From positions 1 to 27,665 of IMG/VR virus record IMGVR_UViG_3300023296_000894: a stretch of 27,665 bases of DNA, one strand, 5' to 3'. This DNA comes from a virus (lineage: Duplodnaviria; Caudoviricetes). The translations under genes were made by a program, and so were the position numbers. The stretch's first letter is position 1. Each line of letters starts with the position of its first letter. Of this stretch, positions 5,226 through 26,282 are shown piece by piece. Below the pieces are notes generated by a model. That model saw only the letters and a program-made list of their open reading frames with translations, made no database searches and was not told the DNA's origin.

Positions 5226-5601
5226 TTGTTCCTCCAATGATATTTTCAAGCAAAATAAAATCATAAATTCTATTCTTGCTTATTAAATTATACGGCGTTG
5301 TGCCGTCGTTTGTCAAGTAAAAAGTGTTTGGTTGCGCAATAAAATGTGATAGAAACATTCTCACCTCAGGCCCACAATTATCAACATCAATAAGTGTAAC
5401 ATCAACTTTTTTTATTAAGTTGATCAGCCATTCAATGTTATCGAATGCAGTTTCATACAGATATAGGTTCAAATGAATCTGTGTTTCGCTTAATATATTG
5501 TTGAGTAACTGTTTTTTATCTGTGGTTGGACATACAACAAGTATGCTGTATGCATCGTTGTTTAATATGTCTGGCGGTGTAATTATTGTAACATCATTCA
5601 T
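5209..5601 (-). CDS. Hypothetical protein
   Basis: 130-aa ORF overlapping both neighbours in operon fashion. Confidence 0.7.
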   Translation of the reverse strand: MNDVTIITPPDILNNDAYSILVVCPTTDKKQLLNNILSETQIHLNLYLYETAFDNIEWLINLIKKVDVTLIDVDNCGPEVRMFLSHFIAQPNTFYLTNDGTTPYNLISKNRIYDFILLENIIGGTNEQTR

Positions 5602-8264: not shown

Positions 8265-9101
8265 TTAAAGCCATTTAGGTTTCTTGATTTTCTTAAACGG
8301 TTTGGCAATAGCATCACCAGCTTTTTTACCAGTATCTACTACTTTATCAGCTGCTTTAGTTGTTTCTTTAGCCACCGTATTTGCTGCTTTAGTTGTTTCT
8401 TTCGCAGTTTCATTTGCTACATTAACTATTTCTTTCTGAGCTGGCTTTGTATCTACACTAACACTAAGGTCAACATCAACTCCAGCCAGCAAAGCAACTT
8501 CACCACTTACTCCTACAGTAGCAACACCGTTATCCATAGTTGCGCCGCCGCCAACTTCAGCACCTGCTTGAACACCGATACTTACACCACCAGTTGCAGC
8601 ACCACCATTGCCACTGCTGTCATAAGCACTCGATGTATTGTCAACACCAACACTTGCTCCTGCTGTAGCACCAGCATGACCTGCTGCACCATCTTTACCG
8701 ATTTGCGCCGATGCACCGGCACTTGCTCCTGCTTCTGCATGAACTGCGGTTTCGTTCTTAACTGTCACATCACCGACTTGTTGACTTACACTTGCGCTTG
8801 CTTCTGCACTTGCGCCAACTTCTGCGCCCGCTTCAGCATAAGCATTGCCGCCACTTACACCCGCTTGTGCTCCTGCACTTGCATGTGCTTCTGCGCTTGC
8901 TCCTGCTTCTACAGTAGTATCACCGTAGGCTGCACTTGTGCCAGCTTCTGCACTTACGCCGGCCTCTGCACTTGCTGCGGCAGTTGTAGCAGTTACTTCT
9001 GTGCCTGCACTTGCATGTGCTTCAGCGCTGGCGTGTGCTTCAACGTCGACGCCGCCTACAGTTGTTTCTGCACTTGTACTTGCTTCTACTTTATCATTCA
9101 T
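8265..9101 (-). CDS. Ala/Gly-rich repetitive protein
   Basis: 278 aa with recurring ASAEAHASAG / GASAEA units and a twice-repeated AKETTKAA near the C-terminus. Confidence 0.75.
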   Translation of the reverse strand: MNDKVEASTSAETTVGGVDVEAHASAEAHASAGTEVTATTAAASAEAGVSAEAGTSAAYGDTTVEAGASAEAHASAGAQAGVSGGNAYAEAGAEVGASAEASASVSQQVGDVTVKNETAVHAEAGASAGASAQIGKDGAAGHAGATAGASVGVDNTSSAYDSSGNGGAATGGVSIGVQAGAEVGGGATMDNGVATVGVSGEVALLAGVDVDLSVSVDTKPAQKEIVNVANETAKETTKAANTVAKETTKAADKVVDTGKKAGDAIAKPFKKIKKPKWL

Positions 9102-10945: not shown

Positions 10946-11172
10946 CCGCCGACATAAGTTTCTGTTTTTGGTCTATAAAAGTTTTTTTGATTGTGAAGCC
11001 GACCGAGGAGATCTTGTATCTCCTTTACCTCACGATCCGCAAGCTGCTGATTTTCAATGTCAGCAGCAGTTAATTTGTATTCAGTAACTGTGCGCTGTCT
11101 ATCACGTAGTGCATGTTCGATCATTTCGATGTCACGCACTGTTAGTTCAAATTCTGTATTGGGTTTTGTCAT
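10942..11172 (-). CDS. Hypothetical protein
   Basis: 76-aa ORF with ATGA overlaps on both sides. Confidence 0.7.
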   Translation of the reverse strand: MTKPNTEFELTVRDIEMIEHALRDRQRTVTEYKLTAADIENQQLADREVKEIQDLLGRLHNQKNFYRPKTETYVGG

Positions 11173-11756
11173 AGTGTGTCTGCTATTTTGTGATTAACTT
11201 CTGCGTGGCCTTGCTCGTCTGCTCTCACTGCTATTACAACATCACGCAATGTTGCGTCATCTGCTAGATTATAATAGTCACGAGCAATGTTGGGTGCAGG
11301 AATATTTTCTGTTCTTCCTGCATCAATCTCTTCCAGGTAGTGAGTGTAGCTGATCACTGCTTGATCTTCAAAGTAGCCTACCATTCTGTGTGCTGTGGTT
11401 GGGAAGAATACGTAAAGAATAAAATAAAAGTGCCAAAACACAAACTGTGCAAATAGAATCAACAGTCTTTCAAAGCGACTTGGCTTTGCGATCTCAACAA
11501 AGATCATAAGATGCATACGCTCGTTTTCTGCTTCTTCTAGCAGCGTTTTGATCCAGCCACGTTCGTCTGGTGCTATGTTGCGCAGGCTGCGTAGGTGCTG
11601 CCACATACCTGCTACCATGCCTGGAACACCTGCCACAGTCTCTAGAACAACTGCACGATGTCCATAGCGTTTGGCGAAGAATGTGTCCGCGAACCAACGA
11701 AAAGTCATTGTTAAAAAATAAGCAACTCTATCACTGAAGTCTTTGGGCTGTCTCAT
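11169..11756 (-). CDS. aox: Alternative oxidase (ubiquinol oxidase, di-iron)
   Basis: LETVAGVPGMV, HLRSLR, LLEEAENERMHL, HRMVGYFEDQAVISYT, PAPNIARDYY, VRADEQGH. Confidence 0.93.
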   Translation of the reverse strand: MRQPKDFSDRVAYFLTMTFRWFADTFFAKRYGHRAVVLETVAGVPGMVAGMWQHLRSLRNIAPDERGWIKTLLEEAENERMHLMIFVEIAKPSRFERLLILFAQFVFWHFYFILYVFFPTTAHRMVGYFEDQAVISYTHYLEEIDAGRTENIPAPNIARDYYNLADDATLRDVVIAVRADEQGHAEVNHKIADTL

Positions 11757-12115
11757 ACATGTTCACCGTTGTTTGCACGGCCGTTGTACTTTGCGCCTGC
11801 TGTTACTAATTTGTTTATGGAAGTTGGGTTGCGGTTTGCTTCACGGAATGTGATAGCAGTGATTGCAACTCCACTGATCAGCAATATGTGAAACACTGCA
11901 CTGATGCCAAACGCAACAAAGCTGCCCAGCATAGCAGCAAAAAGGCCGCTCCATACAAATGCTAGACTTTGAAATACCATATGAGCCGCCATAGGGTCTA
12001 GATTCTTCAGTGGTGAATTTTCAATGGTCATTACGCTATCCCACATCTCTCTAGGCATAGCAATTACAGTCTTCACTGTGGTAACTATGCCTACTGGCTT
12101 TGCTTTTCTGTTCAT
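11753..12115 (-). CDS. Small membrane protein, translationally coupled to aox
   Basis: Start MNRKAK at 12115 (AAGGA RBS); two long hydrophobic segments. Confidence 0.75.
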   Translation of the reverse strand: MNRKAKPVGIVTTVKTVIAMPREMWDSVMTIENSPLKNLDPMAAHMVFQSLAFVWSGLFAAMLGSFVAFGISAVFHILLISGVAITAITFREANRNPTSINKLVTAGAKYNGRANNGEHV

Positions 12116-12143
12116 TGTGTGTCCTTTTGTATGTGTATATGTT

Positions 12144-12172
12144 AATTTAGCATTGTTTAGCGTATGTGTCAA
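12144..12172 (-). promoter_or_regulatory. Sigma70-like promoter of the aox operon
   Basis: TTGACA-17 nt-TAAATT. Confidence 0.65.
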
Positions 12173-12329
12173 GCATCGTTGCTGCGCTAAAGTGTAGCAG
12201 GTACTTACAGTTTCAGAGTGGTGCGTTTTGTATCCCACTATTTGTAACCCAATGTCCTAGTCCCAGTTTAACGGGCACATTCTCTTACCCAGCTGATAAA
12301 ACTATGTTAAACCTTTTTGCCGTCTGTAA

Positions 12330-12506
12330 GTGTAAGTTGATTCTGTTACTAGGTTCAACTTACAAAACCCTCACATACCCTTAGGCTGCTATTGCCATCT
12401 CTGGCGCTCTATTTGCGTTTGCATTTAGAATGTTTGACTGAATAACGTAGGTCAACACGAATACCTAAAAATAAGTTTTTAACGCCCGTCGATCCCTTTC
12501 GCCCCC
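12330..12506 (-). ncRNA. ssrA: Two-piece (permuted) tmRNA, coding piece; tag ANANRAPEMAIAA* at 12381-12422
   Basis: Starts GGGGGCGAAAGGGATCGAC; resume context TAAAT-GCA; tag ends in AA; 3' hairpin GTAAGTTGA...TAACAGAA-TCAACTTAC. The 3' end is approximate. Confidence 0.9.
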
Positions 12507-12538
12507 GGAGTAAAACACACATTTATATATGTGCTTTA

Positions 12539-12612
12539 TGGTGGAGGCGTTGGCCTTCGAAAGCCAAGTCCGGTACATCAATCACCTATTCGTGATTAAA
12601 CTATAAGACAGT
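12539..12612 (-). ncRNA. ssrA: Two-piece tmRNA, acceptor piece
   Basis: GGAC-TTGGC-TTTCGAAG-GCCAA-CGCCTCC-ACCA. CGCCTCC pairs with GGGGGCG including the G3:U70 Ala determinant, and CACGAATA pairs with TATTCGTG of the coding piece. The 5' end is approximate. Confidence 0.85.
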
Positions 12613-12613
12613 A

Positions 12614-13366
12614 TTATTTCCTATAGTATTCCATTCTACGACCTTTATACCAACCGTTTGGTATCTCGCCGCTCGTGTATTTATTTTCTTTTGTTGTTGG
12701 ATTATAGATCCAAAAATTTCCATAAACTCCAGACTTTCTCTTTAGCCTATCTCTTGCTTCTGTAATCCTTATCCATCCTTCTTGTATATTATATACGGAA
12801 AAAACTCGTTTGTCAAGATTGAATCTCGAAGTATCTGTAAGATTTTCTGGAACACACCAGCATTTGTCTTTCATACTATTATTTTCTTTTTGATATTTAG
12901 AAACTTTTTTGTATGATTCCTTATAGACATCAGGGTTGTCTCTAATCTTCCTTTCTTTAGATTCGTTAGCTTTTTTACTAAGATTTACAACTTCAGGGTC
13001 GCCCTTCTTAAATGAAGTTGATCGAAGTCCACCTCCTTTTTTAGCACCTTTTAATCTTGCTGCTTGGGCAGCAGGCGCCTTATTCCAAGTACTCCATCCT
13101 CCGTCGCCTTCTTCTATTTTAAGATTAGCCCATTCGTTAGATTCGACAATATTAAAACGGTTGCTGTATTCTATGCCCTTTTCTTTAATAACATCTTTAC
13201 TGTCTGTTATTATTAATATTTCTGTAGAGATATCAGCACCGTGTTTTTTAAGATGATTTGTCCATCGTGTACCACTGCCTTTATAAGTATATGGGTCAGC
13301 AGATGTCTGACCTAGGTATTTTAATCCTGTTTGATTGTGTGTTTTTACATATAAATAATATGTCAT
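12614..13366 (-). CDS. GIY-YIG (Seg-like) homing endonuclease
   Basis: YYLYVKTHNQTGLKYLGQT..DPYTYKGSGTRW..HLKKHG...WANLKIEEGDGG; C-terminal IPNGWYKGR DNA-binding-type motif. Confidence 0.85.
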   Translation of the reverse strand: MTYYLYVKTHNQTGLKYLGQTSADPYTYKGSGTRWTNHLKKHGADISTEILIITDSKDVIKEKGIEYSNRFNIVESNEWANLKIEEGDGGWSTWNKAPAAQAARLKGAKKGGGLRSTSFKKGDPEVVNLSKKANESKERKIRDNPDVYKESYKKVSKYQKENNSMKDKCWCVPENLTDTSRFNLDKRVFSVYNIQEGWIRITEARDRLKRKSGVYGNFWIYNPTTKENKYTSGEIPNGWYKGRRMEYYRK

Positions 13367-13434
13367 TGCTGGAAATCTCCTTTAGTATTTTTAGAGTAGT
13401 TGGGACTGCCATCCGCGAACTACATTATTATTTA
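13367..13434 (-). promoter_or_regulatory. TAAATA late promoter plus conserved structured leader (copy 1)
   Basis: TAAATA..TGTAGTTCGCGGATGGCAGTCCCAACTACTCTA..AGGAG..CAGCAATG; a homologue lies at 18676-18747. Confidence 0.75.
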
Positions 13435-13456
13435 TCTAAAAGAGTTATTTTTGCCC

Positions 13457-13508
13457 GGTACCGCCCCCAGGTCCAGAATGTGTCCACGTTGTTTCAACGT
13501 TTACAAGT
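13457..13508 (-). pseudogene. Truncated second tmRNA acceptor piece
   Basis: GGACCTGGGGGCGGTACC has the alphaproteobacterial-type GGCGGTA T-loop but is not followed by an acceptor strand or CCA; lies directly after a promoter. Confidence 0.7.
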
Positions 13509-13509
13509 T

Positions 13510-13539
13510 TATTTATACACTCTTTTTATGATTTGTCAA
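13510..13539 (-). promoter_or_regulatory. Promoter of the tmRNA locus (TTGACA plus TATAAATA)
   Basis: TTGACA-16 nt-TATAAATA could act as a sigma70 promoter, a T4-type late promoter, or both. Confidence 0.7.
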
Positions 13540-13745
13540 CTATTTCGATCTGCTCTGGTGTTTCCGCGATCTAGATACCACGGATCCAAATTCAACTGTT
13601 GAGCAACTTCTGCCGCTTGTTCTACACTGTTACAGCTGGTGACCATGTCGCCTTTGCGGCCGCCTGTGCGGATTCGCCACAGTGTCTTACCCAGTGTGGT
13701 AACTTCTTCGTATACCTTAAAATCGTTTCTTACTTTAGTAACCAT
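13536..13745 (-). CDS. Hypothetical protein
   Basis: 69-aa ORF, AAGGA RBS. Confidence 0.7.
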   Translation of the reverse strand: MVTKVRNDFKVYEEVTTLGKTLWRIRTGGRKGDMVTSCNSVEQAAEVAQQLNLDPWYLDRGNTRADRNS

Positions 13746-13756
13746 TGTATGTTCCT

Positions 13757-13993
13757 TTACTCTATGGTTTGGTTGATGTATTTTTTGTATAGTTCTAAAC
13801 TGTCTCGTTCCAATACAGGATCAAACTCTTTGTTAGGATATTTGATACGGGCAAAGGTAAGTTGAGCATCAGTTAGCCACACTACCTCGCCGGCATCCCA
13901 CGATCTGTTTAATATCTGTGTCCAAACAGTATAACAGCGTTTTCGATCACGCTGACGAACGGGCTGGGGTATAGGTGCGGACCACTTGTTCAT
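13757..13993 (-). CDS. Hypothetical protein
   Basis: 78-aa ORF, ATGA overlap. Confidence 0.65.
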   Translation of the reverse strand: MNKWSAPIPQPVRQRDRKRCYTVWTQILNRSWDAGEVVWLTDAQLTFARIKYPNKEFDPVLERDSLELYKKYINQTIE

Positions 13994-14373
13994 CTGCCCA
14001 GCCTCACAGGAGTTTTAATAGGTCCTACGTGTCCAACTTTGTCGCCTGGTTCTGCAGGTTCTACACGATGTCCATGCATACGCAGCAGTGTTGTTTTTTT
14101 TGGCTTCAGCCATTTTACTTCGTAGGCAACATCGTGTTTGAAATATTCATCTACCCAGAGTGTGTATATTTTTTGTATACCAGTATAGGTCTTGCTGTGT
14201 TGTCTGCCCTTGCTAAGAGTCATTTTAACGTCTGCCCGCTTGTAGTCATCTTCAATCGCATAGATACGATACAACTCGTAGCCCAAGCGAGGCAAGCGAA
14301 CAGCATTGCAGGCTGTGCGACTTTGCGTAAGCCGTTGTTTGAAGTCTACATCAAAACGATGACACGATGACAC
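13990..14373 (-). CDS. Hypothetical protein (start uncertain)
   Basis: ORF in a tightly packed minus-strand array. Confidence 0.55.
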   Translation of the reverse strand: MSSCHRFDVDFKQRLTQSRTACNAVRLPRLGYELYRIYAIEDDYKRADVKMTLSKGRQHSKTYTGIQKIYTLWVDEYFKHDVAYEVKWLKPKKTTLLRMHGHRVEPAEPGDKVGHVGPIKTPVRLGR

Positions 14374-14710
14374 CTTCTCGTACTTCTCCTTTTAACACAC
14401 GCCAAGTGTATTCTCGTTCTTTCCGTTCGCGGTACTGTGTGCGAAGTCCATCTTTGTCTCTGCACCACGCTCGCATACGTTCAGCATTGCCATAAGCTTG
14501 AGCAGGCAACTTGAAAAATACTTCATTTACGATTTCAGGCAGGCGCGGCTTGTTCCAATGATCAGCACGACCACAAGCAAGTTGTAGATCGTTGCAGATA
14601 ACTGCGGTCAAAAATCCACCTGGCATATAACCGTGCAGCAGATAGTTTTCAAGACCTTCGTCCAGCAAACTGTTGCCAGTGTTGATATCAGTATAACGGA
14701 TCATTGCCAT
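14351..14710 (-). CDS. Hypothetical phage protein
   Basis: 119 aa; contains YLLHGYMPGGFLTAVICNDL..A..RAD..N. Confidence 0.7.
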   Translation of the reverse strand: MAMIRYTDINTGNSLLDEGLENYLLHGYMPGGFLTAVICNDLQLACGRADHWNKPRLPEIVNEVFFKLPAQAYGNAERMRAWCRDKDGLRTQYRERKEREYTWRVLKGEVREGVIVSSF

Positions 14711-14892
14711 TCATTTCCACGATTAATTTCTTCCTGTGTAAACTGTCCACCCATTCGATCCGGATTCAGTCTCCAGCCCATATCACTGTTTTGGTGTTCC
14801 AGATGTGCAACACGCTTTTGCAAACGCCAAATCTCTAGTACAAGATCCTGTTTCTTCATCTTCATCAGTTTGTTGAATTCTTGCTCAGTCAT
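14701..14892 (-). CDS. Hypothetical protein
   Basis: Start MTEQEF at 14892 after AGGAGG. Confidence 0.65.
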   Translation of the reverse strand: MTEQEFNKLMKMKKQDLVLEIWRLQKRVAHLEHQNSDMGWRLNPDRMGGQFTQEEINRGNEWQ

Positions 14893-14934
14893 TGTGTGCC
14901 TCCTATATACATTTATAACACACAGACACAAACA

Positions 14935-15237
14935 TTACAAGTAAAAAGTTTCTTTAGATTCCAGTGGCATAGCCATCAACAGCAAAGTGTGATATTTTTC
15001 TCCGCGGAAGTAGATGCGTTTGCTGCTCCATCGTTTGCCCTTATGATGAGCAACACCTCGATAGTTACCATCGCCATATACACGGCCAGCAAACTCCCAA
15101 AACTCTGGTCCGAGGTTAGCGCGGCAATATTTGGTATAACGATTGTAGTTGTTCCAGTCGTTGCTGTCAAACTCCACATAGCAATCAAACCCATAACGGT
15201 GCAGATTGTATCGTTTATCGGTTTTACGAAGTTTCAT
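14935..15237 (-). CDS. Hypothetical protein
   Basis: 100-aa ORF in the array. Confidence 0.65.
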   Translation of the reverse strand: MKLRKTDKRYNLHRYGFDCYVEFDSNDWNNYNRYTKYCRANLGPEFWEFAGRVYGDGNYRGVAHHKGKRWSSKRIYFRGEKYHTLLLMAMPLESKETFYL

Positions 15238-15466
15238 TTTTCCATTCCACAGCCTGTAGTTGAATCATTAAAAACTCTTTACGATCAACTGGTGTCATTA
15301 TTCCTGTTTGTCTATTTTTAACATACTTTACTTCATCTGTCAACGGGTCCCAACTCCAAATACGAGAAGAGAAGACCAGTGGGGGTGAGCCTATTGCTGC
15401 ATGACGATAGTATTTTATATTGTTATATCGCCACTTTTCGGGCATTTCATAAAACATCACCTTCAT
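15224..15466 (-). CDS. Hypothetical protein
   Basis: 80-aa ORF, GAGG RBS, ATGA overlap. Confidence 0.65.
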   Translation of the reverse strand: MKVMFYEMPEKWRYNNIKYYRHAAIGSPPLVFSSRIWSWDPLTDEVKYVKNRQTGIMTPVDRKEFLMIQLQAVEWKNETS

Positions 15467-15615
15467 TTGATACGTGCCTCTGTGTATTTTGTGTTAGCAT
15501 ACAGTTTTTTACCGTTTGTGCGAATCATATCAACCAGTGATTGTGGTTTATCTTCAGGGTATGCTATGTCCCAGTTTTCTACTTCTTTATTACACACGAT
15601 ACAATTTGTTTTCAT
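15463..15615 (-). CDS. Small hypothetical protein (50 aa, MKTNCIVCNKEV...)
   Basis: Manually found; ATGA overlaps at both ends; below the ORF-track cutoff. Confidence 0.6.
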   Translation of the reverse strand: MKTNCIVCNKEVENWDIAYPEDKPQSLVDMIRTNGKKLYANTKYTEARIK

Positions 15616-15833
15616 GCTTCTTGTGTTCCTAGTTCATAGTTCCAACCCTTGCCGCCAAGTGTTTTGAGATTTTTCCATTTATCTGCTTCTTCCTTACACT
15701 GAGCCGACTGTCCCATACTGCCTACCACAGCAAAACAACTGTCACAACGATAGGAGAAATCACCGTCAAAGTGAGCAGTTGATCCACACGGTAGAAATAT
15801 TGTATTAAGAACGGTCATTCTTTTGGTTTCCAT
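15612..15833 (-). CDS. Hypothetical Cys-rich (Zn-finger-like) protein
   Basis: PCG...YRCDSCFAVVGS...C. Confidence 0.6.
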   Translation of the reverse strand: METKRMTVLNTIFLPCGSTAHFDGDFSYRCDSCFAVVGSMGQSAQCKEEADKWKNLKTLGGKGWNYELGTQEA

Positions 15834-16135
15834 AGTTTAGCAAATTTCAACACATTTGGCAGTTCTTCAGTAAGTTTGGTATAAGTTACTGCACAACTCT
15901 TACGCCCGTCTAATGTCGTGTTTTCGTGTCCTAGATAGACATTATCAAGGGCGGCAATCTTATCAAACTCTTTTTGATTAACACGAATCACACATTTCTT
16001 AAATGACATACGCAACCAGTTATTGTAATGTCTGTCATTTTGAAATTGTAAATGAGCCCCAAGAACAGCATGTGCCACAAGAGTAGGCGTCATATAGTCT
16101 GGAAACTCATCTAATACACAAATATACATTTTCAT
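15815..16135 (-). CDS. Putative peptidyl-tRNA hydrolase, PTH2-like
   Basis: KMYICV...LVAHAVL...WLRMSFKKCVIRV pattern and a size typical of PTH2-fold proteins. Confidence 0.6.
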   Translation of the reverse strand: MKMYICVLDEFPDYMTPTLVAHAVLGAHLQFQNDRHYNNWLRMSFKKCVIRVNQKEFDKIAALDNVYLGHENTTLDGRKSCAVTYTKLTEELPNVLKFAKLWKPKE

Positions 16136-16359
16136 TCTGCCACATGTCCTCCTGTAGGGTTTTGTTGATACACAGCATCGCCAAGGTTGATCAACTTCTC
16201 GATATGTTTCGGTTCAAAGTTCCACGCTGGCTCCGTCATATTTACAAGATTGTATCCATGACGATGTACACAGCGACCATAGTAGAGAGCATAGCCATCA
16301 CCGTGCGGCTCGATTGTATATCTGTTTTCACACTTACATTCACCAAACGGATCAGTCAT
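16132..16359 (-). CDS. Hypothetical protein
   Basis: Start MTDPFG at 16359 after AGGAG; ATGA overlaps. Confidence 0.6.
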   Translation of the reverse strand: MTDPFGECKCENRYTIEPHGDGYALYYGRCVHRHGYNLVNMTEPAWNFEPKHIEKLINLGDAVYQQNPTGGHVAE

Positions 16360-16493
16360 AGCATTACTCCTAATAAAATTCCAAGTCCGAAAACAGCAAT
16401 TACAGTCCCAATCACATACCAAAAAGCAGGACCCAAAATCATTCCAGCAGCAAGAACGACCAAGTATGGAAATTCAATAATTTTTTTAAGCAT
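16356..16493 (-). CDS. Small membrane protein (45 aa, MLKKIIEFPYLVVLAAG...)
   Basis: Manually found; fills the gap with overlaps on both sides; strongly hydrophobic. Confidence 0.6.
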   Translation of the reverse strand: MLKKIIEFPYLVVLAAGMILGPAFWYVIGTVIAVFGLGILLGVML

Positions 16494-16845
16494 CTCCATA
16501 AGCCTTTAAAAAGTTTTCCATATACTTGCGAATGTTTTCCGCACCTACGGGATTCATTGAATGTACTAAATATCCAAAGCCCATGGGCAAACGCAGATTG
16601 TGATCCATGATATAATCACAGAACCATTTAGCAAAGGTGTAGCCAGTCTTTTCGCCATCACCAATGATGTAGTGTACATCTGCCAAATCATGATCAAATG
16701 ATATGAAAGTGGGCAAGCCATATTGCTCCACACACCACACAGCATCATCCATAGTGCGGCAGATAACTAGATCCTTATAAGGCCCATAGTTGTGACGCAC
16801 ATCTGCTGGAAAGCGTATGTCATCTAAAAAAAGTGTCCAAGCCAT
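16486..16845 (-). CDS. Cyclic-phosphate-processing receiver-domain protein
   Basis: LFLDDIR.P...ISFDHDL...KTGY..AKW...VHSMNPVGAENI signature. Start at 16845 after GGAGG. Confidence 0.8.
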   Translation of the reverse strand: MAWTLFLDDIRFPADVRHNYGPYKDLVICRTMDDAVWCVEQYGLPTFISFDHDLADVHYIIGDGEKTGYTFAKWFCDYIMDHNLRLPMGFGYLVHSMNPVGAENIRKYMENFLKAYGDA

Positions 16846-17081
16846 TATAGGCCTCCATATTTCAATACAAACAAAGTATAGCACTTTTCGTTAGCAAAGT
16901 CAACTCTTGTTTGGGGAATATATTGTGCCTTGAACTGTTTGAGTTCTTGATTTAGTGTATCAAGGTCAAAGCCTTCAAGGTTGTTTTGTTCAACTCCTCT
17001 ATCACGTAGGTCGCGAATAAAGTTTTGCCAGTTAGTAGGACACAAGGATAGGCCATCACCTAACCGTAGACTCACAGTCAT
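16845..17081 (-). CDS. Hypothetical protein
   Basis: Start MTVSLR at 17081 (ATGA overlap). Confidence 0.6.
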   Translation of the reverse strand: MTVSLRLGDGLSLCPTNWQNFIRDLRDRGVEQNNLEGFDLDTLNQELKQFKAQYIPQTRVDFANEKCYTLFVLKYGGL

Positions 17082-17236
17082 TTTAATGTCCATAAGTCTT
17101 TGGCAAAATCGCCCATCTCCGCTAATCCCGCTTTGTAGCCAGCCAACCAAGCACGATACAATGCTTCCTCTGTATCGCCTCGCAACAGTTCTGTTAGTTG
17201 ATCTTTGTTCGCTTCAAACCATTCATCAAATGTCAT
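17078..17236 (-). CDS. Small hypothetical protein (52 aa, MTFDEWFEAN...AWLAGY)
   Basis: Manually found; ATGA overlaps at both ends. Confidence 0.6.
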   Translation of the reverse strand: MTFDEWFEANKDQLTELLRGDTEEALYRAWLAGYKAGLAEMGDFAKDLWTLK

Positions 17237-17442
17237 ACTTCTACTACCTTTACTTCCTGTACCACAAGCACTCTATTGCCTGGATAACTCACATGATGTC
17301 CCGCAGCGTCGATTGTTTTCTGTGCTTGAATTGGGCTGGTAAACAGTCGTACCTCGTCGATAAAATAACTGTACCAACCGTTGCTGCTGGAGCGTTGACG
17401 ATAGTATTCACCACTGTTTGTGTCTTTGATTACCCAAGCCAT
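17233..17442 (-). CDS. Hypothetical protein
   Basis: 69-aa ORF in the array. Confidence 0.6.
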   Translation of the reverse strand: MAWVIKDTNSGEYYRQRSSSNGWYSYFIDEVRLFTSPIQAQKTIDAAGHHVSYPGNRVLVVQEVKVVEV

Positions 17443-17780
17443 TGCTTCAACCTTTCACCAAAATACTTTTTTGTCGGTTCGTGCTTGTTCCTCAGTATCA
17501 AAACAGGCGATGTCGATCTTACTGTCTCACCACCAAACACACGCTCTTTTACAAAGTAGTGTTTGCTCGTAGCAGTATATTGACGGCCCATATCATCGTA
17601 TGGCACACTCACTTCACGGCTGGTTACATCATATGTAGTAAAGTCAATACGAACTTTGCGTAGATCAATAATAAGTGTGCTGCCCAGTCGCTTGCCATCG
17701 TGTGTTTGATCTACAACTGAGAACTCATCCGCTTCCCAGTTGTTGCGATAGGCTAATAGTTTTCCACTACCGTGTGACAT
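17430..17780 (-). CDS. Hypothetical protein
   Basis: Start MSHGSG at 17780. Confidence 0.6.
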   Translation of the reverse strand: MSHGSGKLLAYRNNWEADEFSVVDQTHDGKRLGSTLIIDLRKVRIDFTTYDVTSREVSVPYDDMGRQYTATSKHYFVKERVFGGETVRSTSPVLILRNKHEPTKKYFGERLKQWLG

Positions 17781-17781
17781 A

Positions 17782-17958
17782 TTATTTTTCCATCCTAAAG
17801 ATACGTTCGATTTCAAGTTCGCTTTTGTCTTTTACTCGTTTACAGAATTGATGATATTGATCTGTATCATAAAGCTCGTGTTCAACAAACTGTTCAAACC
17901 ACTTGTTTACAACTTGCTGTCGCAGTTGTGCTCGGTCATGTTGTATACCGTGTGACAT
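17782..17958 (-). CDS. Small hypothetical protein (58 aa, MSHGIQHD...)
   Basis: Manually found; first gene after a TATACT-containing promoter near 17993-18020. Confidence 0.6.
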   Translation of the reverse strand: MSHGIQHDRAQLRQQVVNKWFEQFVEHELYDTDQYHQFCKRVKDKSELEIERIFRMEK

Positions 17959-18048
17959 ATGTGTGTCTTTCGTTTGTTTCTATTACACATAAAGTATAGC
18001 ACAATCAAGAGAAAACGCAAGCAAAAAGTTGCCTGCGTTTTCAAAGGT

Positions 18049-18606
18049 TTACATACCTAACCACTTAGCACAAGCGTCCCACTTGACGTTTGTAGTGATG
18101 TTCTTCGCAATGTGCTGTAGCAGCAACTCTCGCAAGTCGTGGCCGTCCAACATACGGAAGATGAACTGAGCATCGGTTTTGTGTTCCATAGTAGGAACAA
18201 ACTCAGTAGCAATCCGCTTGCGGTCATTCTGATACATCAGTTCGCAACCAGTTCGATATACAGCCAAGCGATCCTCAGTTGATACAAATGCTCGCCAAAA
18301 ACGCAGTTCAAACTCGCGAATGCGTTCAACTTGAACAGAAGGCAACATGGGAATCACGTCGTCCACTTCTTCGTTGATGATTAGGTTGACAATGTTACGA
18401 TCAAACACAATGCGATCAATGGTCTTATGAATTCTAACATATTGATCTGCTTTGATTTTTACTCGGTGTCCATCTGCCAACGCAAGAACAAAGCCTTCTG
18501 CGTTTTCAAGGCCACGAGTAAATTCTATCAGAGAATCAATTTTTGTAAATGGTAGGATTGTATCTACCAATGGAATATTAAATTCTTGAATTTTGTCTAG
18601 TAGCAT
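18049..18606 (-). CDS. RNA ligase 1 (T4 RnlA-like), C-terminal fragment
   Basis: Motif IV (AEGFVL), motif V (RVKIKADQYVRIHK) and a helical C-domain. ATG at 18606 with GAGG RBS. Confidence 0.85.
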   Translation of the reverse strand: MLLDKIQEFNIPLVDTILPFTKIDSLIEFTRGLENAEGFVLALADGHRVKIKADQYVRIHKTIDRIVFDRNIVNLIINEEVDDVIPMLPSVQVERIREFELRFWRAFVSTEDRLAVYRTGCELMYQNDRKRIATEFVPTMEHKTDAQFIFRMLDGHDLRELLLQHIAKNITTNVKWDACAKWLGM

Positions 18607-18634
18607 AGTTGGTTGCCTCTTACTGTGTTTAGCA

Positions 18635-18663
18635 AGTATAGCACTGCAAATATAGTTTGTCAA
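18635..18663 (-). promoter_or_regulatory. Sigma70-like promoter for the ligase C-fragment
   Basis: TTGACA-17 nt-TATACT. Confidence 0.85.
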
Positions 18664-18675
18664 CTGATAAAAGGC

Positions 18676-18747
18676 TAAATAAAAGTGTAGTTCACGGACT
18701 TCGTGGTGGTCGTCCCAACTACTCTATAACTAAGTAGGAGTTACAGC
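18676..18747 (+). promoter_or_regulatory. TAAATA late promoter plus conserved structured leader (copy 2)
   Basis: TAAATA..TGTAGTTCACGGAC-N12-GTCCCAACTACTCTA..AGGAG..CAGCATG. Confidence 0.75.
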
Positions 18748-19542
18748 ATGAATATTTATATACAGATTATAAGTGATCTCTCACAAAAGAACAAGTATTT
18801 TTCTTGGTGGCAGTCTATGATCGAACGTGGTATACAAAGAGCCAGCACTCGAGAAGAAGCCAAATCTCTGCTAGGATATGTAGAAGGACACCACATAGTG
18901 CCTGTTAGTTTTAACCTCGGTGGCAAAAACGATAGCGATAACTTTGTTTATCTTACTGCAAAAGAGCATATTATGATACATAGACTAATGTGTAAATTTC
19001 TCACTAATGAATATAGAATAAAATCATTGAGAGCATTTCATTGCATGTGCTTTAAAGATAACGGTGGTCAAAACAAAAGATTAGCATCGCTACACCAGTT
19101 AGCAAAAGCAAGAGAGGCAGTATCTGAATCGAACAAAGGCAAACGAGGCCCAATCGGTGTTCCAGCCTGGTTTACAGAATCAACCGATTTTGATATTTTT
19201 TGCGATCGATTAGGAGAATTGGTAGCAGAAGGATTAAGTGATCCGCAAATAGGTAAAAAGTATGACGTAAGTGCTACCGCTATTTTTAATTGGAGAAATA
19301 AACTAAATCTCAGAAGACGTCGATGGCAACTGAGAGATAAAAAATGGTTACACAATCACTATGTGAATAAAAAATTGTCTGCAGAGAAAATTGCGTCTCT
19401 AATAGGTTGCAGCGGAACAGCCGTTCAACAATATTTGATTAAATTTAATATACCTATTAGAGACGCAAACGAACGCCAAAAATCAAGAACTGATCGGAAG
19501 ATACTCACCAGTAATGTTGTGACGAACTGCCAACAAGGTTAG
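18748..19542 (+). CDS. HNH homing endonuclease (MobE-like) with two C-terminal HTH motifs
   Basis: YVEGHHIVPVS...GG.NDSDNFVYLTAKEHIMIHRLM; LSDPQIGKKYDVSATAIFNW; LSAEKIASLIGCSGTAVQQYL. The only convincing plus-strand gene. Confidence 0.9.
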   Translation: MNIYIQIISDLSQKNKYFSWWQSMIERGIQRASTREEAKSLLGYVEGHHIVPVSFNLGGKNDSDNFVYLTAKEHIMIHRLMCKFLTNEYRIKSLRAFHCMCFKDNGGQNKRLASLHQLAKAREAVSESNKGKRGPIGVPAWFTESTDFDIFCDRLGELVAEGLSDPQIGKKYDVSATAIFNWRNKLNLRRRRWQLRDKKWLHNHYVNKKLSAEKIASLIGCSGTAVQQYLIKFNIPIRDANERQKSRTDRKILTSNVVTNCQQG

Positions 19543-20076
19543 TGTATCTTCTTCGTATGGAAGAACAATTTGATTGAATGGACTACACCATTCAAAAATT
19601 GGAGTTAGTTTTTCACTGATACACCAGGCAGCGAAGTCTTTGTATCGAGTGTTTTTGGCTATAAACTCTTCGGCTTGCATAGCCACTTCAGTGATTCCCA
19701 TTTTAGTCATCCAACGGATATAACCATCAACTAGCATAGGGTGAATCATTGATCCATCCAGTTTTTCCATGATAACATGAGGCTGTGATAGATTAACTAA
19801 ATGCGGCTGAGTTTCTTCCTTTTCACCAACATTAAAAAATTTCACAAACGGACGAGCAGCAATTTCACCGCTTGGGGCGAACTTCAAGCCTCTACACTCA
19901 CGTCGAACAGCACCACCTAAGTCATCGGGCCCAGTCATATTGAAGGTGTCAGCCATAGCCACCACATAGTTTACCACACTATATCCTTCACGCTCTGCTA
20001 CGATAAATTCGTCGCGGCCTTCAATGTGAGGAAGCACATCATCAAGATGACGGATTTCAGGGAATTGATAGTTCAT
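19483..20076 (-). CDS. RNA ligase 1 (T4 RnlA-like), N-terminal fragment
   Basis: RECRGLKF, ARPFVKFFNVGE, motif I EKLDGSMI, TPIFEW..P.NQIV..Y, LLAVRHNITGEY. Confidence 0.9.
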   Translation of the reverse strand: MNYQFPEIRHLDDVLPHIEGRDEFIVAEREGYSVVNYVVAMADTFNMTGPDDLGGAVRRECRGLKFAPSGEIAARPFVKFFNVGEKEETQPHLVNLSQPHVIMEKLDGSMIHPMLVDGYIRWMTKMGITEVAMQAEEFIAKNTRYKDFAAWCISEKLTPIFEWCSPFNQIVLPYEEDTLTLLAVRHNITGEYLPISS

Positions 20077-22916: not shown

Positions 22917-23167
22917 TACAATGCCCATCCAGTTCCATTATAACCGGTTTCTTCTAAATAAGTAGACAGTTCTTTGTATCCGCCTATAGCTGATCCATTT
23001 ACAATGATCTGCGGATAAGTTTTAGCTTCGGGGAAACGTTCTAACAATTCTTCTCTAGTAAATTCGTTTCCTAGGCTGTAGTAACTATAATTCAGATGCC
23101 TTGATTCACACAGTGATCGTGCTGCATCACAGTATCCACAACTGGGTTTCCCCCAAATTTCTATCAT
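22916..23167 (-). CDS. nrdC: Glutaredoxin
   Basis: CGYC active site, KTYPQI, IGGY; lies in the nrd cluster. Confidence 0.92.
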   Translation of the reverse strand: MIEIWGKPSCGYCDAARSLCESRHLNYSYYSLGNEFTREELLERFPEAKTYPQIIVNGSAIGGYKELSTYLEETGYNGTGWAL

Positions 23168-24297
23168 AGACTGAATCCTTTTTGAATTATTTCTAATTTC
23201 CAGCCCGTTGTTTTTCCTTTTTTAGGAATAGGCCAGTTTTTTTGTATTTGCATTTTTAGTGTACTCCAACTTAGATTGTTTTTCTTACAAAATTCTACTG
23301 CTTCGCCGCCGCATAAAATATGTTCAACGCTTTGAGGTGATGTTAATTTATATGTGTAACTGTTTTTGTTACCTTTGCCAACTCGTAATTTTGCCTTGGC
23401 TCCTATTAAGTCCTTTGTACTTTGCTTCTGTGTTTTGCCGTACATAGGGTTTCCAGAACCAGTATTTAATTTACTAAACTTCTTGCGTGTTTCGTCGCTG
23501 TGACGTTTAGGCCCATAGCCTCCACGTTCTTTCTGCAGGCGCGATCGCAATTCTCGTTGTTGCTGTGCTTTTTCAACACCATAAATTTCTTCGTATGTTT
23601 TGCCTCTGTGATTAGGAGGATGTGCATCTATACAGATATTAGATAATATTCCGTCTTTTTCATATCCCTTTCTGCCATAACGCTTAATCAACTCTGATTC
23701 TATATTATACGCTAAATCTTCATCAATGATATTTTCAGCAATATACTCAATTAATGGTTCATTACCAGATGCACGTATGCTAGCAATCTTATTTTCTTTA
23801 TAAACATTCCTAGTTTCAGGAACGTCCCATAAGTGTGTTTTGGCTCGTCTACCTTTGCCTTTTCCGATATAAAAGGGTTGACTGTTTCTTGGGTCTACTA
23901 ATTGATATACATAATACACGCTATTTTTCTCCTGCTGTATATATTTAGCAAGAGACTGAGAATAACAGTTAGGTATTGAATAATCCTCGGTTTGATTAGA
24001 ACTAGCAGCAAAGATAATGTGTTCTCTGTGATCTTTATATGGGGTTATGTCTACTAGTTTGTCGTCTTTCCATATACTGTGCCGTATGGCTTGTATAACG
24101 CCAAACCCTTTTAAAAAATAATAGCCAATTACTTTCTTTCCGCCATAGATAGTGGTATGTGTTTTAACATTATTATGACAGTTGTTGTAATCGTATGCTG
24201 AGTGTGCGTTAACAACTACAGCGCCAATCCAGTTGCAATCAAGAGACTTTGCCATAGAACGCATGTCATCTTCAACTGCAACTGGATTGTTCCACAT
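23164..24297 (-). CDS. GIY-YIG/NUMOD3 homing endonuclease fused in frame to an N-terminal domain of about 125 aa; probable internal start at 23919
   Basis: YYVYQLVDPRNSQPFYIGKGKGRRAKTHL...E..LIKRYGR...GILSN; KRHSDETRKKFS, GNPMYGK. Confidence 0.85.
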   Translation of the reverse strand: MWNNPVAVEDDMRSMAKSLDCNWIGAVVVNAHSAYDYNNCHNNVKTHTTIYGGKKVIGYYFLKGFGVIQAIRHSIWKDDKLVDITPYKDHREHIIFAASSNQTEDYSIPNCYSQSLAKYIQQEKNSVYYVYQLVDPRNSQPFYIGKGKGRRAKTHLWDVPETRNVYKENKIASIRASGNEPLIEYIAENIIDEDLAYNIESELIKRYGRKGYEKDGILSNICIDAHPPNHRGKTYEEIYGVEKAQQQRELRSRLQKERGGYGPKRHSDETRKKFSKLNTGSGNPMYGKTQKQSTKDLIGAKAKLRVGKGNKNSYTYKLTSPQSVEHILCGGEAVEFCKKNNLSWSTLKMQIQKNWPIPKKGKTTGWKLEIIQKGFSL

Positions 24298-25427
24298 TAG
24301 AGGCTGAATCCTTTGAATGTGTCACTGCTAACGTCCTGTTTAGTGCCGCCAGAAACGTAAGAACTTATCTGTGTTTGCTGAGGTGCCACTTGTACTTCAG
24401 CGCCCGAAATCCATTTCTGTGTCCACGGCAGCGGATTGTTCTTGATGGTGTAGGGACTTTTAAGATTCACATTGGTCATTCTGCGTGTACAGATCCATTC
24501 AATGTATTCACTCAACAGTTGTGTGTTTAGGCCGATCATGCTTCCGTCTTTGAACAAATATTCTGCCCAAGCTTTTTCTTGATCTACTGCGTCGATAAAC
24601 ATTTGAACGCAGGCTGCTTCTGTTTCATCTGCAATCTTTTCAAAGTCCGGATCATCCTTCTTCAGTAGCTTGAGCAGCATCTGTGTGCTAGCTAGGTGCA
24701 GGTTCTCATCACGAGCAATCAACTTGATGATCTTAGCATTGCCTTCCATCTTCTTAAGTTCAGCAAACGCCCAACTACATGCAAAGCTTACATAGAAGCG
24801 AACACCTTCGAGAATGTTCACACTCATCAATGCCAGCCACAACAGTTTCTTTAATTCATAAAGATCAACCACCACAGTGTTACCGTTCACAGTGTGTACG
24901 CCTTCACCTAGTAGATTGTAGTAACTGGCCAGTTCAATTAGGTCGTCGTAGTACTTTGAAATGTCTCCTGCACAGTCTACAATTTCTGTAATGTTCATCA
25001 TCTCGTCAAAGATCTTGCTGGGGTTGGAATAGATGTTGCGGATGATGTGTGTATAGCTTCTGCTGTGGATAGTCTCAGAGAACGTCCAAGTGATGATCCA
25101 GTTCTCTAGTTCAGGTAGGCTTACAATAGTACCAAAGCTTTCTGCTGGTGCTCGACCCTGTACTGAGTCCAACAGTATTTGACGCTTGAGGTTTGAAGTA
25201 AAGATATGTCGCTCATGGTCTGTGAGAGCCTTAAAGTCTTTGGCATCTTGATAGATGTCTATTTCCTCAGGACGCCAAAAGAATCCCAACTGCTTGTCTG
25301 TTAGTTGATCAAACTGTTTGTACTTCAGTGTATCATAACGCTGAATTGTTGGGCCACCACTTGGATCAAGGAACGCCTTTACTGTAGTGTGGTCTACTGT
25401 GTTGGTGGTGTCAAATACACTGCTCAT
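24297..25427 (-). CDS. nrdB: Ribonucleotide reductase class Ia beta subunit
   Basis: FFWRPEEI, LLDSVQGR, SETIHSRSYTHI, LEGVRFYVSFACSWAF, IARDENLH, VAPQ. Confidence 0.97.
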   Translation of the reverse strand: MSSVFDTTNTVDHTTVKAFLDPSGGPTIQRYDTLKYKQFDQLTDKQLGFFWRPEEIDIYQDAKDFKALTDHERHIFTSNLKRQILLDSVQGRAPAESFGTIVSLPELENWIITWTFSETIHSRSYTHIIRNIYSNPSKIFDEMMNITEIVDCAGDISKYYDDLIELASYYNLLGEGVHTVNGNTVVVDLYELKKLLWLALMSVNILEGVRFYVSFACSWAFAELKKMEGNAKIIKLIARDENLHLASTQMLLKLLKKDDPDFEKIADETEAACVQMFIDAVDQEKAWAEYLFKDGSMIGLNTQLLSEYIEWICTRRMTNVNLKSPYTIKNNPLPWTQKWISGAEVQVAPQQTQISSYVSGGTKQDVSSDTFKGFSL

Positions 25428-25455
25428 TATAATAATCCTTTGATTTTAATTGTTA

Positions 25456-25528
25456 ATTTTAACACACTGCTCACAGTGTGTCAACATTTATATAGTGCAA
25501 CTATAACATGTCCCAGAGGACATGTCAA
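25456..25528 (-). promoter_or_regulatory. Two tandem sigma70-like promoters upstream of nrdB, each with a palindromic spacer
   Basis: TTGACA(25528)-17-TATAGT and TTGACA(25484)-17-TAAAAT. Confidence 0.75.
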
Positions 25529-26214: not shown

Positions 26215-26221
26215 GTTATAT

Positions 26222-26275
26222 CTCCTCTGCGTTTTTACTATATTACCTTAATACTATTTATCAAACGCAGCGGAA
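26222..26275 (-). promoter_or_regulatory. RBS-sequestering hairpin with a late promoter in the loop
   Basis: TTCCGCTGCGTTT...TAAATA...AAACGCAGAGGAG. Confidence 0.7.
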
Positions 26276-26282
26276 AACTTAA

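Follow-up and report, generated by a model that had tools for sequence, protein, structure and literature searches.

Two unrelated nuclease genes in a 27,665-nt stretch of phage DNA (the window) are preceded by the same leader, which is probably a two-way cassette: an antisense RNA of 60 to 75 nt, made from it, would base-pair with the mRNA of the nuclease and keep it from being translated. This reading rests on sequence comparison, namely the fold, the strand that the fold prefers, a second promoter box, and the tie of that box to the cassette. Homing endonucleases in phages are known to be controlled by promoter choice, by bypass hairpins, and by autorepression (PMC2988022). If true, an antisense cassette adds another layer of control, one that extends across unrelated nuclease families, and it could account for the tolerance of 13 such genes in a single genome.

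A leader shared by two nuclease genes

The preliminary description of this DNA had reported a common leader in front of two unrelated genes, and both copies lie where it placed them. Two copies of the pattern GTAGTT..AACTAC are found in the window (13396-13423 and 18687-18722), against a mean of 0.09 in shuffled sequences (a count of 2 was reached in 3 of 100 shuffles), and CCAACTACTCTA matches exactly at both leaders. The two nucleases, already held to be nonhomologous, share no BLASTP alignment (best E = 52). The features of the two loci are as follows.

12290..12657, minus strand: permuted tmRNA with a replacement acceptor piece ending in CCACCA at about 12539
12614..13366, minus strand: free-standing GIY-YIG-like endonuclease gene, 250 aa (open reading frame, family alignment)
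12788..12816, minus strand: perfect sigma-70-type promoter in the 3' end of the nuclease gene (12/12 consensus)
13352..13357, plus strand: antisense late-promoter box TAAATA, in codons 4-5 of the GIY-YIG-like gene
13368..13394, plus strand: predicted antisense stem-loop 1 (GCUG...UAG) of the GIY-YIG-like leader (covariance model, pair counts)
13396..13423, plus strand: predicted antisense stem-loop 2 of the GIY-YIG-like leader (pattern, pair counts, covariance model)
13429..13434, minus strand: TAAATA, sense late-promoter box of the GIY-YIG-like gene, followed after 5 nt by the outer stem (sequence)
13453..13476, minus strand: acceptor piece of the original permuted tmRNA, which the insertion truncates ahead of its CCA end
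18049..18663, minus strand: C-terminal half of the split RNA ligase, with the ATG at 18606 as its likely start
18663-18635, minus strand: own sigma-70-type promoter of the ligase C-terminal half (11/12 consensus)
18676..18681, plus strand: TAAATA, sense late-promoter box of the HNH gene, followed after 5 nt by the outer stem (sequence)
18687..18722, minus strand: predicted antisense stem-loop 2 of the HNH leader (pattern, fold, covariance model)
18724..18747, minus strand: predicted antisense stem-loop 1 of the HNH leader, together with the predicted RNA 5' end, G at 18747 (covariance model, fold)
18748..19542, plus strand: gene of a free-standing HNH homing endonuclease, 264 aa (match to phrog_655, homing endonuclease, E 8e-22)
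18753..18758, minus strand: antisense late-promoter box TAAATA, within codons 2-4 of the HNH gene; the predicted start is 5 nt away
19483..20076, minus strand: N-terminal half of split RNA ligase 1 (Pfam RNA_lig_T4_1)

We infer the promoter activity of the TAAATA boxes from the T4-type consensus (PMC2984593). The spacing of 5 nt between the sense box and the fold is found in 136 of 186 copies of the element. The covariance model matches 13368-13429 at 57.4 bits and 18681-18747 at 63.6 bits, both sequences having belonged to its training set. Stem-loop 2 of the GIY-YIG-like leader consists of a 6-bp outer stem, two bulged Gs flanking a single R-Y pair, an upper stem, and the 6-nt loop CUGCCA. 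Its counterpart in the HNH leader has the same two bulged Gs and an upper stem with a 2x2 internal loop; what had been read as a 12-nt loop folds as a 6-nt loop, CACCAC, over that internal loop. Stem-loop 1 contains the anti-Shine-Dalgarno letters CUCCUU at 13377-13382 in the GIY-YIG-like leader and is complementary to AGGAG at 18736-18740 in the HNH leader. The preliminary description saw a single hairpin and missed both the second covarying stem over the Shine-Dalgarno sequence and the reverse TAAATA.

The label “GIY-YIG” for the gene at 12614-13366 is weak: the protein itself has no nuclease match in Pfam or PHROGs, SegE_GIY-YIG is matched by 4 of 16 members of its family (best E 4e-4), and no solved relative was found. 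Insertion into a tmRNA and a ligase, as described earlier, is borne out by sequence and by the ligase alignments. The acceptor motif reaches CCACCA within 22 nt in 95 of 98 distinct contexts but not in the window, and the promoter at 12788..12816 likely drives the replacement tmRNA. The HNH gene is inserted against the host operon; the N-terminal half of the ligase aligns to residues 1-194 of the Cr30 ligase with 47% identity and the C-terminal half to residues 235-377 (E 8e-16). The proposed link between the leader and the unusual rescue of these two targets looks incidental, given up to 13 copies of the cassette in single records.

Covariation, strand, and loop of the fold

Both stems covary among related phage contigs. 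Across 80 sequences, 95.5% of cells pair and 14 of 19 pairs have changed on both sides, and among 36 distinct protein-anchored copies the values are 97.1% and 16 of 19, in covariance-model alignments that are biased towards the model; these and the other copy and pair counts include related sequences, with shared ancestry uncorrected. The bulged Gs are kept in 52 and 53 of 54 protein-anchored copies and in 70 of 71 whole-genome copies. Stem-loop 1 has an invariant CUG/UAG base that includes a G·U pair, the G-Y-G bulges are nearly invariant, and anti-Shine-Dalgarno letters lie inside stem-loop 1 in 180 of 186 copies.

The pair types favor the strand opposite the nuclease gene as the one suited to the conserved RNA fold, because the non-Watson-Crick pairs are G·U there and A·C on the mRNA strand. 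Read on the mRNA strand, the outer stem contains 9 A·C pairs versus 1 G·U among the 186 copies, while stem-loop 2 read on the antisense strand contains 27 G·U and no A·C among 54 protein-anchored copies. The R-Y pair is G-C in 50, G·U in 12, A-U in 9, and A·C in none of 71 whole-genome copies. The Y of the sense pattern is T in 11 of 48 copies with CAC and in 0 of 137 with CGC, a combination that pairs on the antisense strand only. For the outer stem alone, the whole-genome set gives 5 G·U versus 1 A·C (P = 0.22). Folding energy is lower for the antisense than for the sense strand in 169 of 186 copies, a gap that is partly inherent in the search pattern.

This preference bears on the reading first given to the leader, that of a cis-acting structure in the late mRNA serving as a protein-binding or processing site, which we now consider very improbable. 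The late mRNA does have the complement at its predicted 5' end, with a folding energy of -12 to -14 kcal/mol, and a fold of the mRNA is also required, as a kissing target, under the antisense explanation. However, that energy is ordinary relative to shuffles (z of -1.4 and -0.5), the mRNA-strand fold gains A·C mismatches instead of G·U pairs, and a reverse TAAATA pointing back across the leader is left unexplained.

The G·T asymmetry is compatible with a single-stranded DNA hairpin as well. Integron attC sites are DNA-hairpin recombination signals, and a bottom-strand hairpin with extrahelical Gs could likewise mark a cassette end or recombination site, as had been suggested for this leader; the strand-specific G·T pairs and the extrahelical bases fit, and loop inversions occur. 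The tmRNA insertion junction, however, lies about 20 nt outside the sense promoter and not at the hairpin, at the ligase a further promoter is located outside the hairpin, and the fold keeps a fixed spacing to the promoter boxes and is tied to the ribosome-binding site. We hold a DNA signal to be the least probable of the explanations considered.

Contrary to what had been thought, the loop of stem-loop 2 does not vary freely. It is 6 nt long in 132 of 186 copies and 6 to 8 nt in 174, and GNRA or UUCG tetraloops occur in none of the 186; the GGCA once taken for a GNRA tetraloop has C as its third base. The commonest loop, UUGGCG or its complement CGCCAA, is found in 30 of 186 copies across 13 stem contexts, and 13 loops are found in both orientations. 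YUNR is present in 48 of 82 distinct loops versus 28 in shuffles, and is thus enriched without being universal. The loop characters of the CopA and Inc RNAs, i.e., a short GC-rich loop, YUNR, and bulges in the upper stem, are all found. Within genomes, 5 of 258 loop pairs are identical versus 6.1 expected by permutation, a low-power comparison that puts loop diversity at chance level.

The extent of conservation raises the question of whether the opposite-strand RNA is instead a folded ligand of a host or phage protein (a chaperone, nuclease, or repressor) that does not act mainly by pairing with mRNA. The invariant CUG/UAG base and the near-invariant G-Y-G bulges do exceed the needs of kissing alone. 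Against this stand the tolerance of loops in either orientation, in keeping with self-complementary recognition, the confinement of the RNA to the leader that it complements, and the lack of a domain common to the downstream proteins. We regard a protein ligand as decidedly unlikely.

The reverse promoter box and a candidate antisense RNA

The reverse TAAATA, set within the first codons of the gene, is 5 nt away from the fold in 123 of 186 copies, mirroring the sense box, and occurs in all three reading frames (90, 19, and 7 copies). It is present in 44 of 46 nuclease genes with the cassette versus 5 of 66 relatives without it, a difference seen for both GIY-YIG-like genes (27 of 29 versus 4 of 23) and HNH genes (17 of 17 versus 1 of 43). 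The arrangement expected of a cis-antisense RNA, a reverse promoter near the gene start that faces the leader, is found here in the form of a sequence box only. One search for RNA runs covering positions 12000-19700 of the window listed none, which speaks neither for nor against expression. We also considered a long-range helix that would join the two promoter boxes in read-through mRNA, and rejected it; at seven flank positions in 160 copies, pairing did not exceed that of shuffles (smallest P of 0.03, uncorrected).

In the antisense mechanism that we propose, both promoter boxes would fire late. The antisense RNA would begin with stem-loop 1 over the ribosome-binding site, followed by the hairpin with two bulged Gs and a GC-rich loop of 6 to 7 nt. 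This loop would kiss the complementary hairpin at the 5' end of the mRNA, the bulged Gs would let the pairing spread down the stem, and stem-loop 1 would then mask the Shine-Dalgarno sequence as far as the start codon. Termination of the RNA would fall to the U-rich complement of the sense promoter; in the GIY-YIG-like leader, the complement of the box at 13429..13434 is the predicted U-rich tail. Repression would rise with genome copy number and cap nuclease output in late replication, as in IS10 RNA-OUT. Some observations run counter to the mechanism. With both promoters in one temporal class, no on/off timing is obvious, and the antisense box of the GIY-YIG-like copy in the window, at 13352..13357, sits an atypical 10 nt from the fold, the mode being 5. 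A terminator scan called neither hairpin of the window, where the stem is bulged, and the U-rich tail is imposed by the sense promoter.

Alternatively, the reverse promoter could act by transcriptional interference or as an outward promoter for neighboring genes, with a fold that only ends or stabilizes the transcript and with RNA-RNA pairing unneeded. The two boxes face one another about 75 nt apart, and in a crude open reading frame test the upstream neighbor is on the opposite strand in 54 of 115 loci (same strand in 37, none in 24). After stem-loop 2, 180 of 186 copies have a U-rich tail (5 or more U in 8 nt). However, the two conserved bulged Gs weaken a terminator stem, and stable tetraloops are absent from all 186 copies. 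Furthermore, in the 37 same-strand loci an outward promoter would face no gene of its own direction, and the C-terminal half of the ligase already has its own sigma-70 promoter. We consider this explanation unlikely.

Distribution and comparison with known systems

What stands of the regulatory RNA or cassette first proposed is a portable, covarying element outside Rfam that accompanies unrelated nuclease families; a working structure in the mRNA as a cis leader is not supported. None of the three refuting outcomes named for it at first (an Rfam match, a lack of covariation, a lack of enrichment before endonuclease genes) was observed. Rfam 15 gave no match at either window leader down to an E value of 5, which leaves the element as unrecognized as it was first called, and among 20 related loci it gave four weak matches, of which only PhrS overlaps an element (17.3 bits versus 37, E 3.6). 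Self-cleaving ribozymes, riboswitches, REP elements, and the C-loop were considered and have no Rfam match; the C-loop idea fell once the strand was reversed. A literature search found no paper describing this element.

The genes that follow the element are nucleases, as had been anticipated, and the cassette precedes many more nuclease genes, of unrelated families, in related phages. A near-strict pattern gave five matches in a species-genome collection, and since all five are metagenome-assembled contigs of 1.7 to 43 kb, the element looks phage-borne. BLASTN against cultured phages gave one plausible match, Rhizobium phage RHph_I1_18, with which the covariance model agrees (36.6 bits). In Caulobacter phage Cr30, too, a copy precedes the annotated homing endonuclease; a laboratory host exists for this phage and makes the idea testable, and the loop variants amount to a natural library for RNA regulators.

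Close parallels are RNA-OUT/RNA-IN of IS10 and art200 of IS200. There, a GC-rich loop initiates the pairing, and in IS10 the repression increases with copy number (PMC4513863). A conserved fold on the opposite strand, a reverse promoter box, and complementarity to the ribosome-binding site are all present here. Unlike those systems, the setting is a lytic T4-like phage and both promoters are putative phage late boxes; one cassette serves unrelated GIY-YIG-like and HNH genes and has no sequence or Rfam match.

Kissing-loop antisense RNAs are also known from plasmids, namely CopA/CopT of R1, Inc RNA of ColIb-P9, and RNAI of IncB/IncK (PMC10798244, PMC10724649, PMC3753616), and a cited title gives UUGGCG, the commonest loop here, as the target-loop motif of ColIb-P9. 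Because the stems are unrelated, the likeness of the loops is probably convergent. The target here is a nuclease leader rather than a Rep leader, there is no leader peptide or pseudoknot and no Rfam match, and the low-power comparison within genomes shows no sign of loop exclusion of the incompatibility type; the element works like CopA or Inc RNA at most and is not a member of that group. A bolder and doubtful extension is a plasmid-style copy-number circuit in large T4-like phages, in which the kissing-loop cassette, having reached the UUGGCG loop of Inc plasmids independently, would set a dosage-independent cap for each nuclease. Given the stems and occasional loops that cassettes have in common, their RNAs could also act in trans on other nucleases of the genome and on those of coinfecting phages, as an RNA-based immunity to homing.

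The bypass hairpins of I-TevI, I-TevII, I-TevIII, segB, and Aeh1 mobE limit translation, and the late transcript of the I-TevI type lacks the 5' arm of the hairpin (PMC2988022). A phage homing endonuclease, a late promoter, and a covered ribosome-binding site are common to both cases. Here, in contrast, the late box is upstream of each hairpin with its two arms, the fold favors the opposite strand, and the flanks of the boxes do not covary.

In-gene reverse promoters that yield an antisense RNA dampening the gene are described for the EcoRI and Eco29kI restriction genes and for the type I toxin-antitoxin system symE/symR (PMC3874152). Those are single bacterial loci, whereas the present element is a portable, structured phage cassette found across nuclease families. 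In the T4-like cyanophage S-PM2, the antisense RNA CfrI is expressed and overlaps a homing endonuclease gene (PMC2984593); by its description, on which our comparison is based, it is about 225 nt long and links psbA to the nuclease gene. Automated predictions of structured RNAs in IMG/VR by Fremin et al. (2023) include DNAVirus_8080, _8282/_8283, and _1290, for which the passages concerned give no mechanism (PMC10690425). The three candidates with known lengths, likened to the cassette by their listing descriptions only, measure 79 to 92 nt and lie upstream of GIY-YIG genes, two of them upstream of HNH genes also, and 8282 and 8283 are listed as an opposite-strand pair (PMC10690425).

The leader cassette and its distribution

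The preliminary description had drawn the same leader in front of two window nuclease genes with unrelated products, and both leaders are borne out by the window sequence, with CCAACTACTCTA exact at each and the outer-stem pattern found twice in the window compared with a mean of 0.09 in shuffles. The genes are as follows.

12614..13366, minus strand: GIY-YIG-like gene, 250 aa
18748..19542, plus strand: HNH gene, 264 aa

Their proteins do not align with each other, as had been stated. The HNH gene product matches phrog_655 (E = 8e-22). The GIY-YIG label holds only in part: the window protein matched no nuclease profile, although 4 of 16 members of its family gave a weak SegE_GIY-YIG match. The leader likewise exists as drawn, but the cassette is larger, with a second hairpin and a TATTTA in the first codons. 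Its full order is sense TAAATA, 5 nt, an internal-loop (bulged) hairpin, a Shine-Dalgarno hairpin, CAGC, the start codon, and TATTTA within the first codons. A comparison with Rfam gave no match at either window leader and only four weak matches on 20 related loci. No paper describing the cassette was found in a search of the published literature that had most subscription papers outside its reach. The accessible text of Fremin et al. 2023 reports automatically predicted candidates ahead of genes of the HNH and GIY-YIG types; one has a partner on the opposite strand, and the motif may already be in that list, without a mechanism.

The element is real and widespread. A strict pattern search of IMG/VR returned 125 loci (about 880 estimated), and a pattern with both outer-stem arms free returned 126 (about 2500 estimated, a few false matches included). 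Together with the window, these sets comprise 195 distinct elements, from which we kept the 186 with YAGY 12 to 48 nt downstream and dropped 9. By a crude motif rule, the genes downstream of the 186 copies are GIY-YIG-like (101), HNH-like (47), other (20), or short or absent (18). Among 113 downstream proteins of at least 100 aa from fetched loci, Pfam gave a nuclease-type match for 64, which a hand count of the table divides into 25 HNH-type, 14 GIY-YIG-type, and 25 with NUMOD3 or I-TevI-binding matches only. As many as 13 copies are found in each of two records whose completeness is 90% or more. A collection of species genomes yielded 5 matches, every one on a metagenome-assembled contig. 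The cultured carriers are Rhizobium phage RHph_I1_18 and Caulobacter phage Cr30; the Cr30 copy (30.6 bits, E = 4e-6) ends 2 nt upstream of an annotated homing endonuclease, and its boxes are variants (TAATTA sense, TAAGTA antisense); the antisense RNA predicted for it would begin close to record position 137001, on the minus strand.

At some loci (L002, L035, L046, L058, L064, L081, L091, L113, L147, L207, and L211), the reading frame after the cassette is shorter than 60 codons, which may reflect a frameshifted or decayed nuclease gene or else an orphan cassette that could still produce the predicted antisense RNA. Short leaders at L296, L304, L309, and L336, upstream of position 1501, have TAAATA and GGAGC-like remnants without the bulged hairpin and may be deletion forms of the cassette.

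Covariation and strand of the fold

Six Watson-Crick pairs form in the outer stem of 176 of the 186 copies, with 35 different stems; 73 of these 176 come from the free-arm search only, the strict pattern itself having fixed the stem in the others. When 80 sequences are aligned, pairing holds in 95.5% of cells (78% in shuffles) and 14 of the 19 pairs show two-sided change (11 in shuffles). So that the DNA patterns would not bias the set, loci were also fetched through their nuclease proteins, with 80 loci each from the GIY-YIG-like and HNH families. In an alignment of 36 distinct GIY-YIG-like-family copies, fitted to the model, two-sided change is seen at each of the 11 pairs of the bulged hairpin, the GG/CC pairs fixed by the DNA patterns among them. 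Both bulged Gs are kept in 70 of 71 whole-genome copies. A protein-binding RNA, which would use the fold as a recognition site, is quite unlikely.

Judged by its pair types, the fold belongs to the strand opposite the nuclease gene. The pair counts given here are of raw copies, uncorrected for shared ancestry. The outer stems of the 186 copies include 9 A·C and 1 G·U when read on the mRNA strand. Opposite CRC stands a single pyrimidine, and T is found there with CAC alone (11/48, versus 0/137 with CGC). This makes R and Y a pair on the antisense strand and often an A·C mismatch on the sense strand; the R-Y pair is never A·C in the 71 whole-genome copies. Across 54 distinct copies fetched through their proteins (2 rows skipped), the first ten pairs of the bulged hairpin, read on the antisense strand, amount to 497 Watson-Crick and 27 G·U pairs, with no A·C. 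For the outer stem alone in the 71 whole-genome copies, G·U outnumbers A·C by 5 to 1, which is not significant. The working structure had been placed in the mRNA, but its non-Watson-Crick pairs, mostly A·C there and mostly G·U on the opposite strand, favor the latter. A cis leader on the mRNA is very improbable. A hairpin acting as DNA is, at most, a slight prospect. The CRC/C internal loop of the preliminary description becomes one base pair between two bulged Gs when read on the antisense strand, and its GGCA is no GNRA loop.

The start codon lies within the second hairpin, 7 to 9 nt upstream of the CAGY end, at L024, L143, L154, L198, L200, L276, and L285, mostly with the reverse box or a close variant still 4 to 7 nt from the fold. 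The divergent leader of L284 (about 1410-1500), with a TTGGCG hairpin and a reverse TAAATA, was missed by R1, the covariance model of the fold, and was entered in the counts as cassette negative; it is possibly a second form of the cassette.

The reverse box and a putative antisense RNA

TATTTA is TAAATA read on the opposite strand, and the T4-like cyanophage late-promoter motif is NATAAATA in the accessible text of PMC2984593. In 123 of 186 copies, 5 nt separate the reverse box from the GCUG at the opening of the fold, and the sense box has the same spacing in 136; in the window, the reverse spacing is the canonical 5 nt in the HNH copy and 10 nt in the GIY-YIG-like copy. The box occurs in all three reading frames (90, 19, and 7), which indicates that it is not retained for its amino acids. 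With duplicates removed and 1 and 13 loci without an in-frame ATG left out, it is present in 27/29 GIY-YIG-like genes with the cassette versus 4/23 without (P = 2e-8) and in 17/17 HNH genes with the cassette versus 1/43 without (P = 5e-14). Across 160 copies, the sequences flanking the two boxes show no covariation of the kind expected of an RNA helix, and the boxes are therefore best read as two facing promoters. Transcriptional interference between them, or an outward promoter, is unlikely to be the function.

The cassette probably makes an antisense RNA that would cap translation of the nuclease. Comparison of copies supports the fold, its strand preference, the second box, and complementarity to the ribosome-binding site, the last in 180 of 186 copies. 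Both boxes would drive late transcription, and the reverse one would yield an RNA of 60 to 75 nt that would end in the U-rich stretch complementary to the sense promoter. Contact between its loop and that of the target would let pairing spread through the bulges and block initiation; as long as antisense RNA is not bound, A·C mismatches in the mRNA would make for a ribosome site that opens readily. By analogy with IS10, in which repression increases with copy number (PMC4513863, in part), the cassette would put a ceiling on nuclease production while genome number rises.

The loop looks well suited to a kissing interaction. Once 17 four-base loops are opened by one pair, it measures 6 nt in 132 of 186 copies and 6 to 8 nt in 174, and GNRA and UUCG tetraloops are absent from all 186. 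Both orientations are represented for 13 loop sequences. YUNR, located in the CopT loop in the accessible part of PMC10798244, stands in one orientation of 48 of the 82 distinct loops, versus 28 in shuffles. The commonest loop, UUGGCG or its complement (30 of 186 copies, 13 stem contexts), matches the 5'-rUUGGCG-3' loop motif of the ColIb-P9 antisense target, as worded in a title cited in PMC10724649. Available passages of that paper assign strand melting and pairing to an upper-stem interior loop, and those of PMC3753616 state that loop-loop regulators require one. Between the two window cassettes, non-cognate partners have a predicted binding energy of about −36 kcal/mol, versus −86 to −94 for cognate partners.

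Several results count against the antisense reading. A terminator scan made no call at the window hairpins, the two promoters, both of the predicted late class, would give no difference in timing, and an incompatibility test found no excess of loop diversity within genomes. As far as their available text goes, the cis-antisense controls of transposase, plasmid-replication, and restriction genes (PMC4513863, PMC10724649, and PMC3874152) would work alike. The cassette is a member of none of those families, and it differs from the T-even bypass hairpins as presented in the accessible part of PMC2988022.

The two insertions and other window genes

12290-13476, minus strand: GIY-YIG-like gene breaking the acceptor piece of a permuted tmRNA, with a replacement acceptor of different sequence downstream
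18049-20076, minus strand: RNA ligase 1 split in two by the HNH gene

Of 98 distinct contexts of the tmRNA acceptor motif, 95 run on to CCACCA. In the window, the nuclease cassette interrupts the motif before that point, and the replacement follows a perfect sigma-70-type promoter located within the nuclease gene. When aligned to the intact Cr30 ligase, the N-terminal half covers residues 1-194 and the C-terminal half residues 235-377; the latter is preceded by a sigma-70-type promoter and a ribosome site of its own (likely start, 18606). Neither rescue needs an antisense promoter. The suggestion that the element is a cassette end or recombination site is not supported at either insertion, the hairpin marking the junction in neither. 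For the tmRNA insertion, the first 100 residues have a 100% match in six IMG/VR loci (L258-L263).

23164-27640, minus strand: ribonucleotide reductase region, where GIY-YIG-type genes separate the subunits and also follow them
2578-4985, minus strand: GMP reductase gene, seemingly in two pieces around a NUMOD3/Vsr-like nuclease ORF
484-1702, 4992-5264, and 11169-11756, minus strand: bilin reductase and heme oxygenase pair, ribosomal protein S21, and alternative oxidase
8265-9101, minus strand: repetitive 278-aa protein

The cassette is absent from all nuclease genes of the ribonucleotide reductase region, in which the large subunit has an intein-like break. The apparent split at 2578-4985, with intein-like ends on both pieces, was read from translations; its GMP reductase and nuclease labels are tentative. 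The genes from bilin reductase to alternative oxidase, also read from translations, are presumably what these names say, and host-like. The 278-aa protein is rich in Ala, Gly, and Ser.
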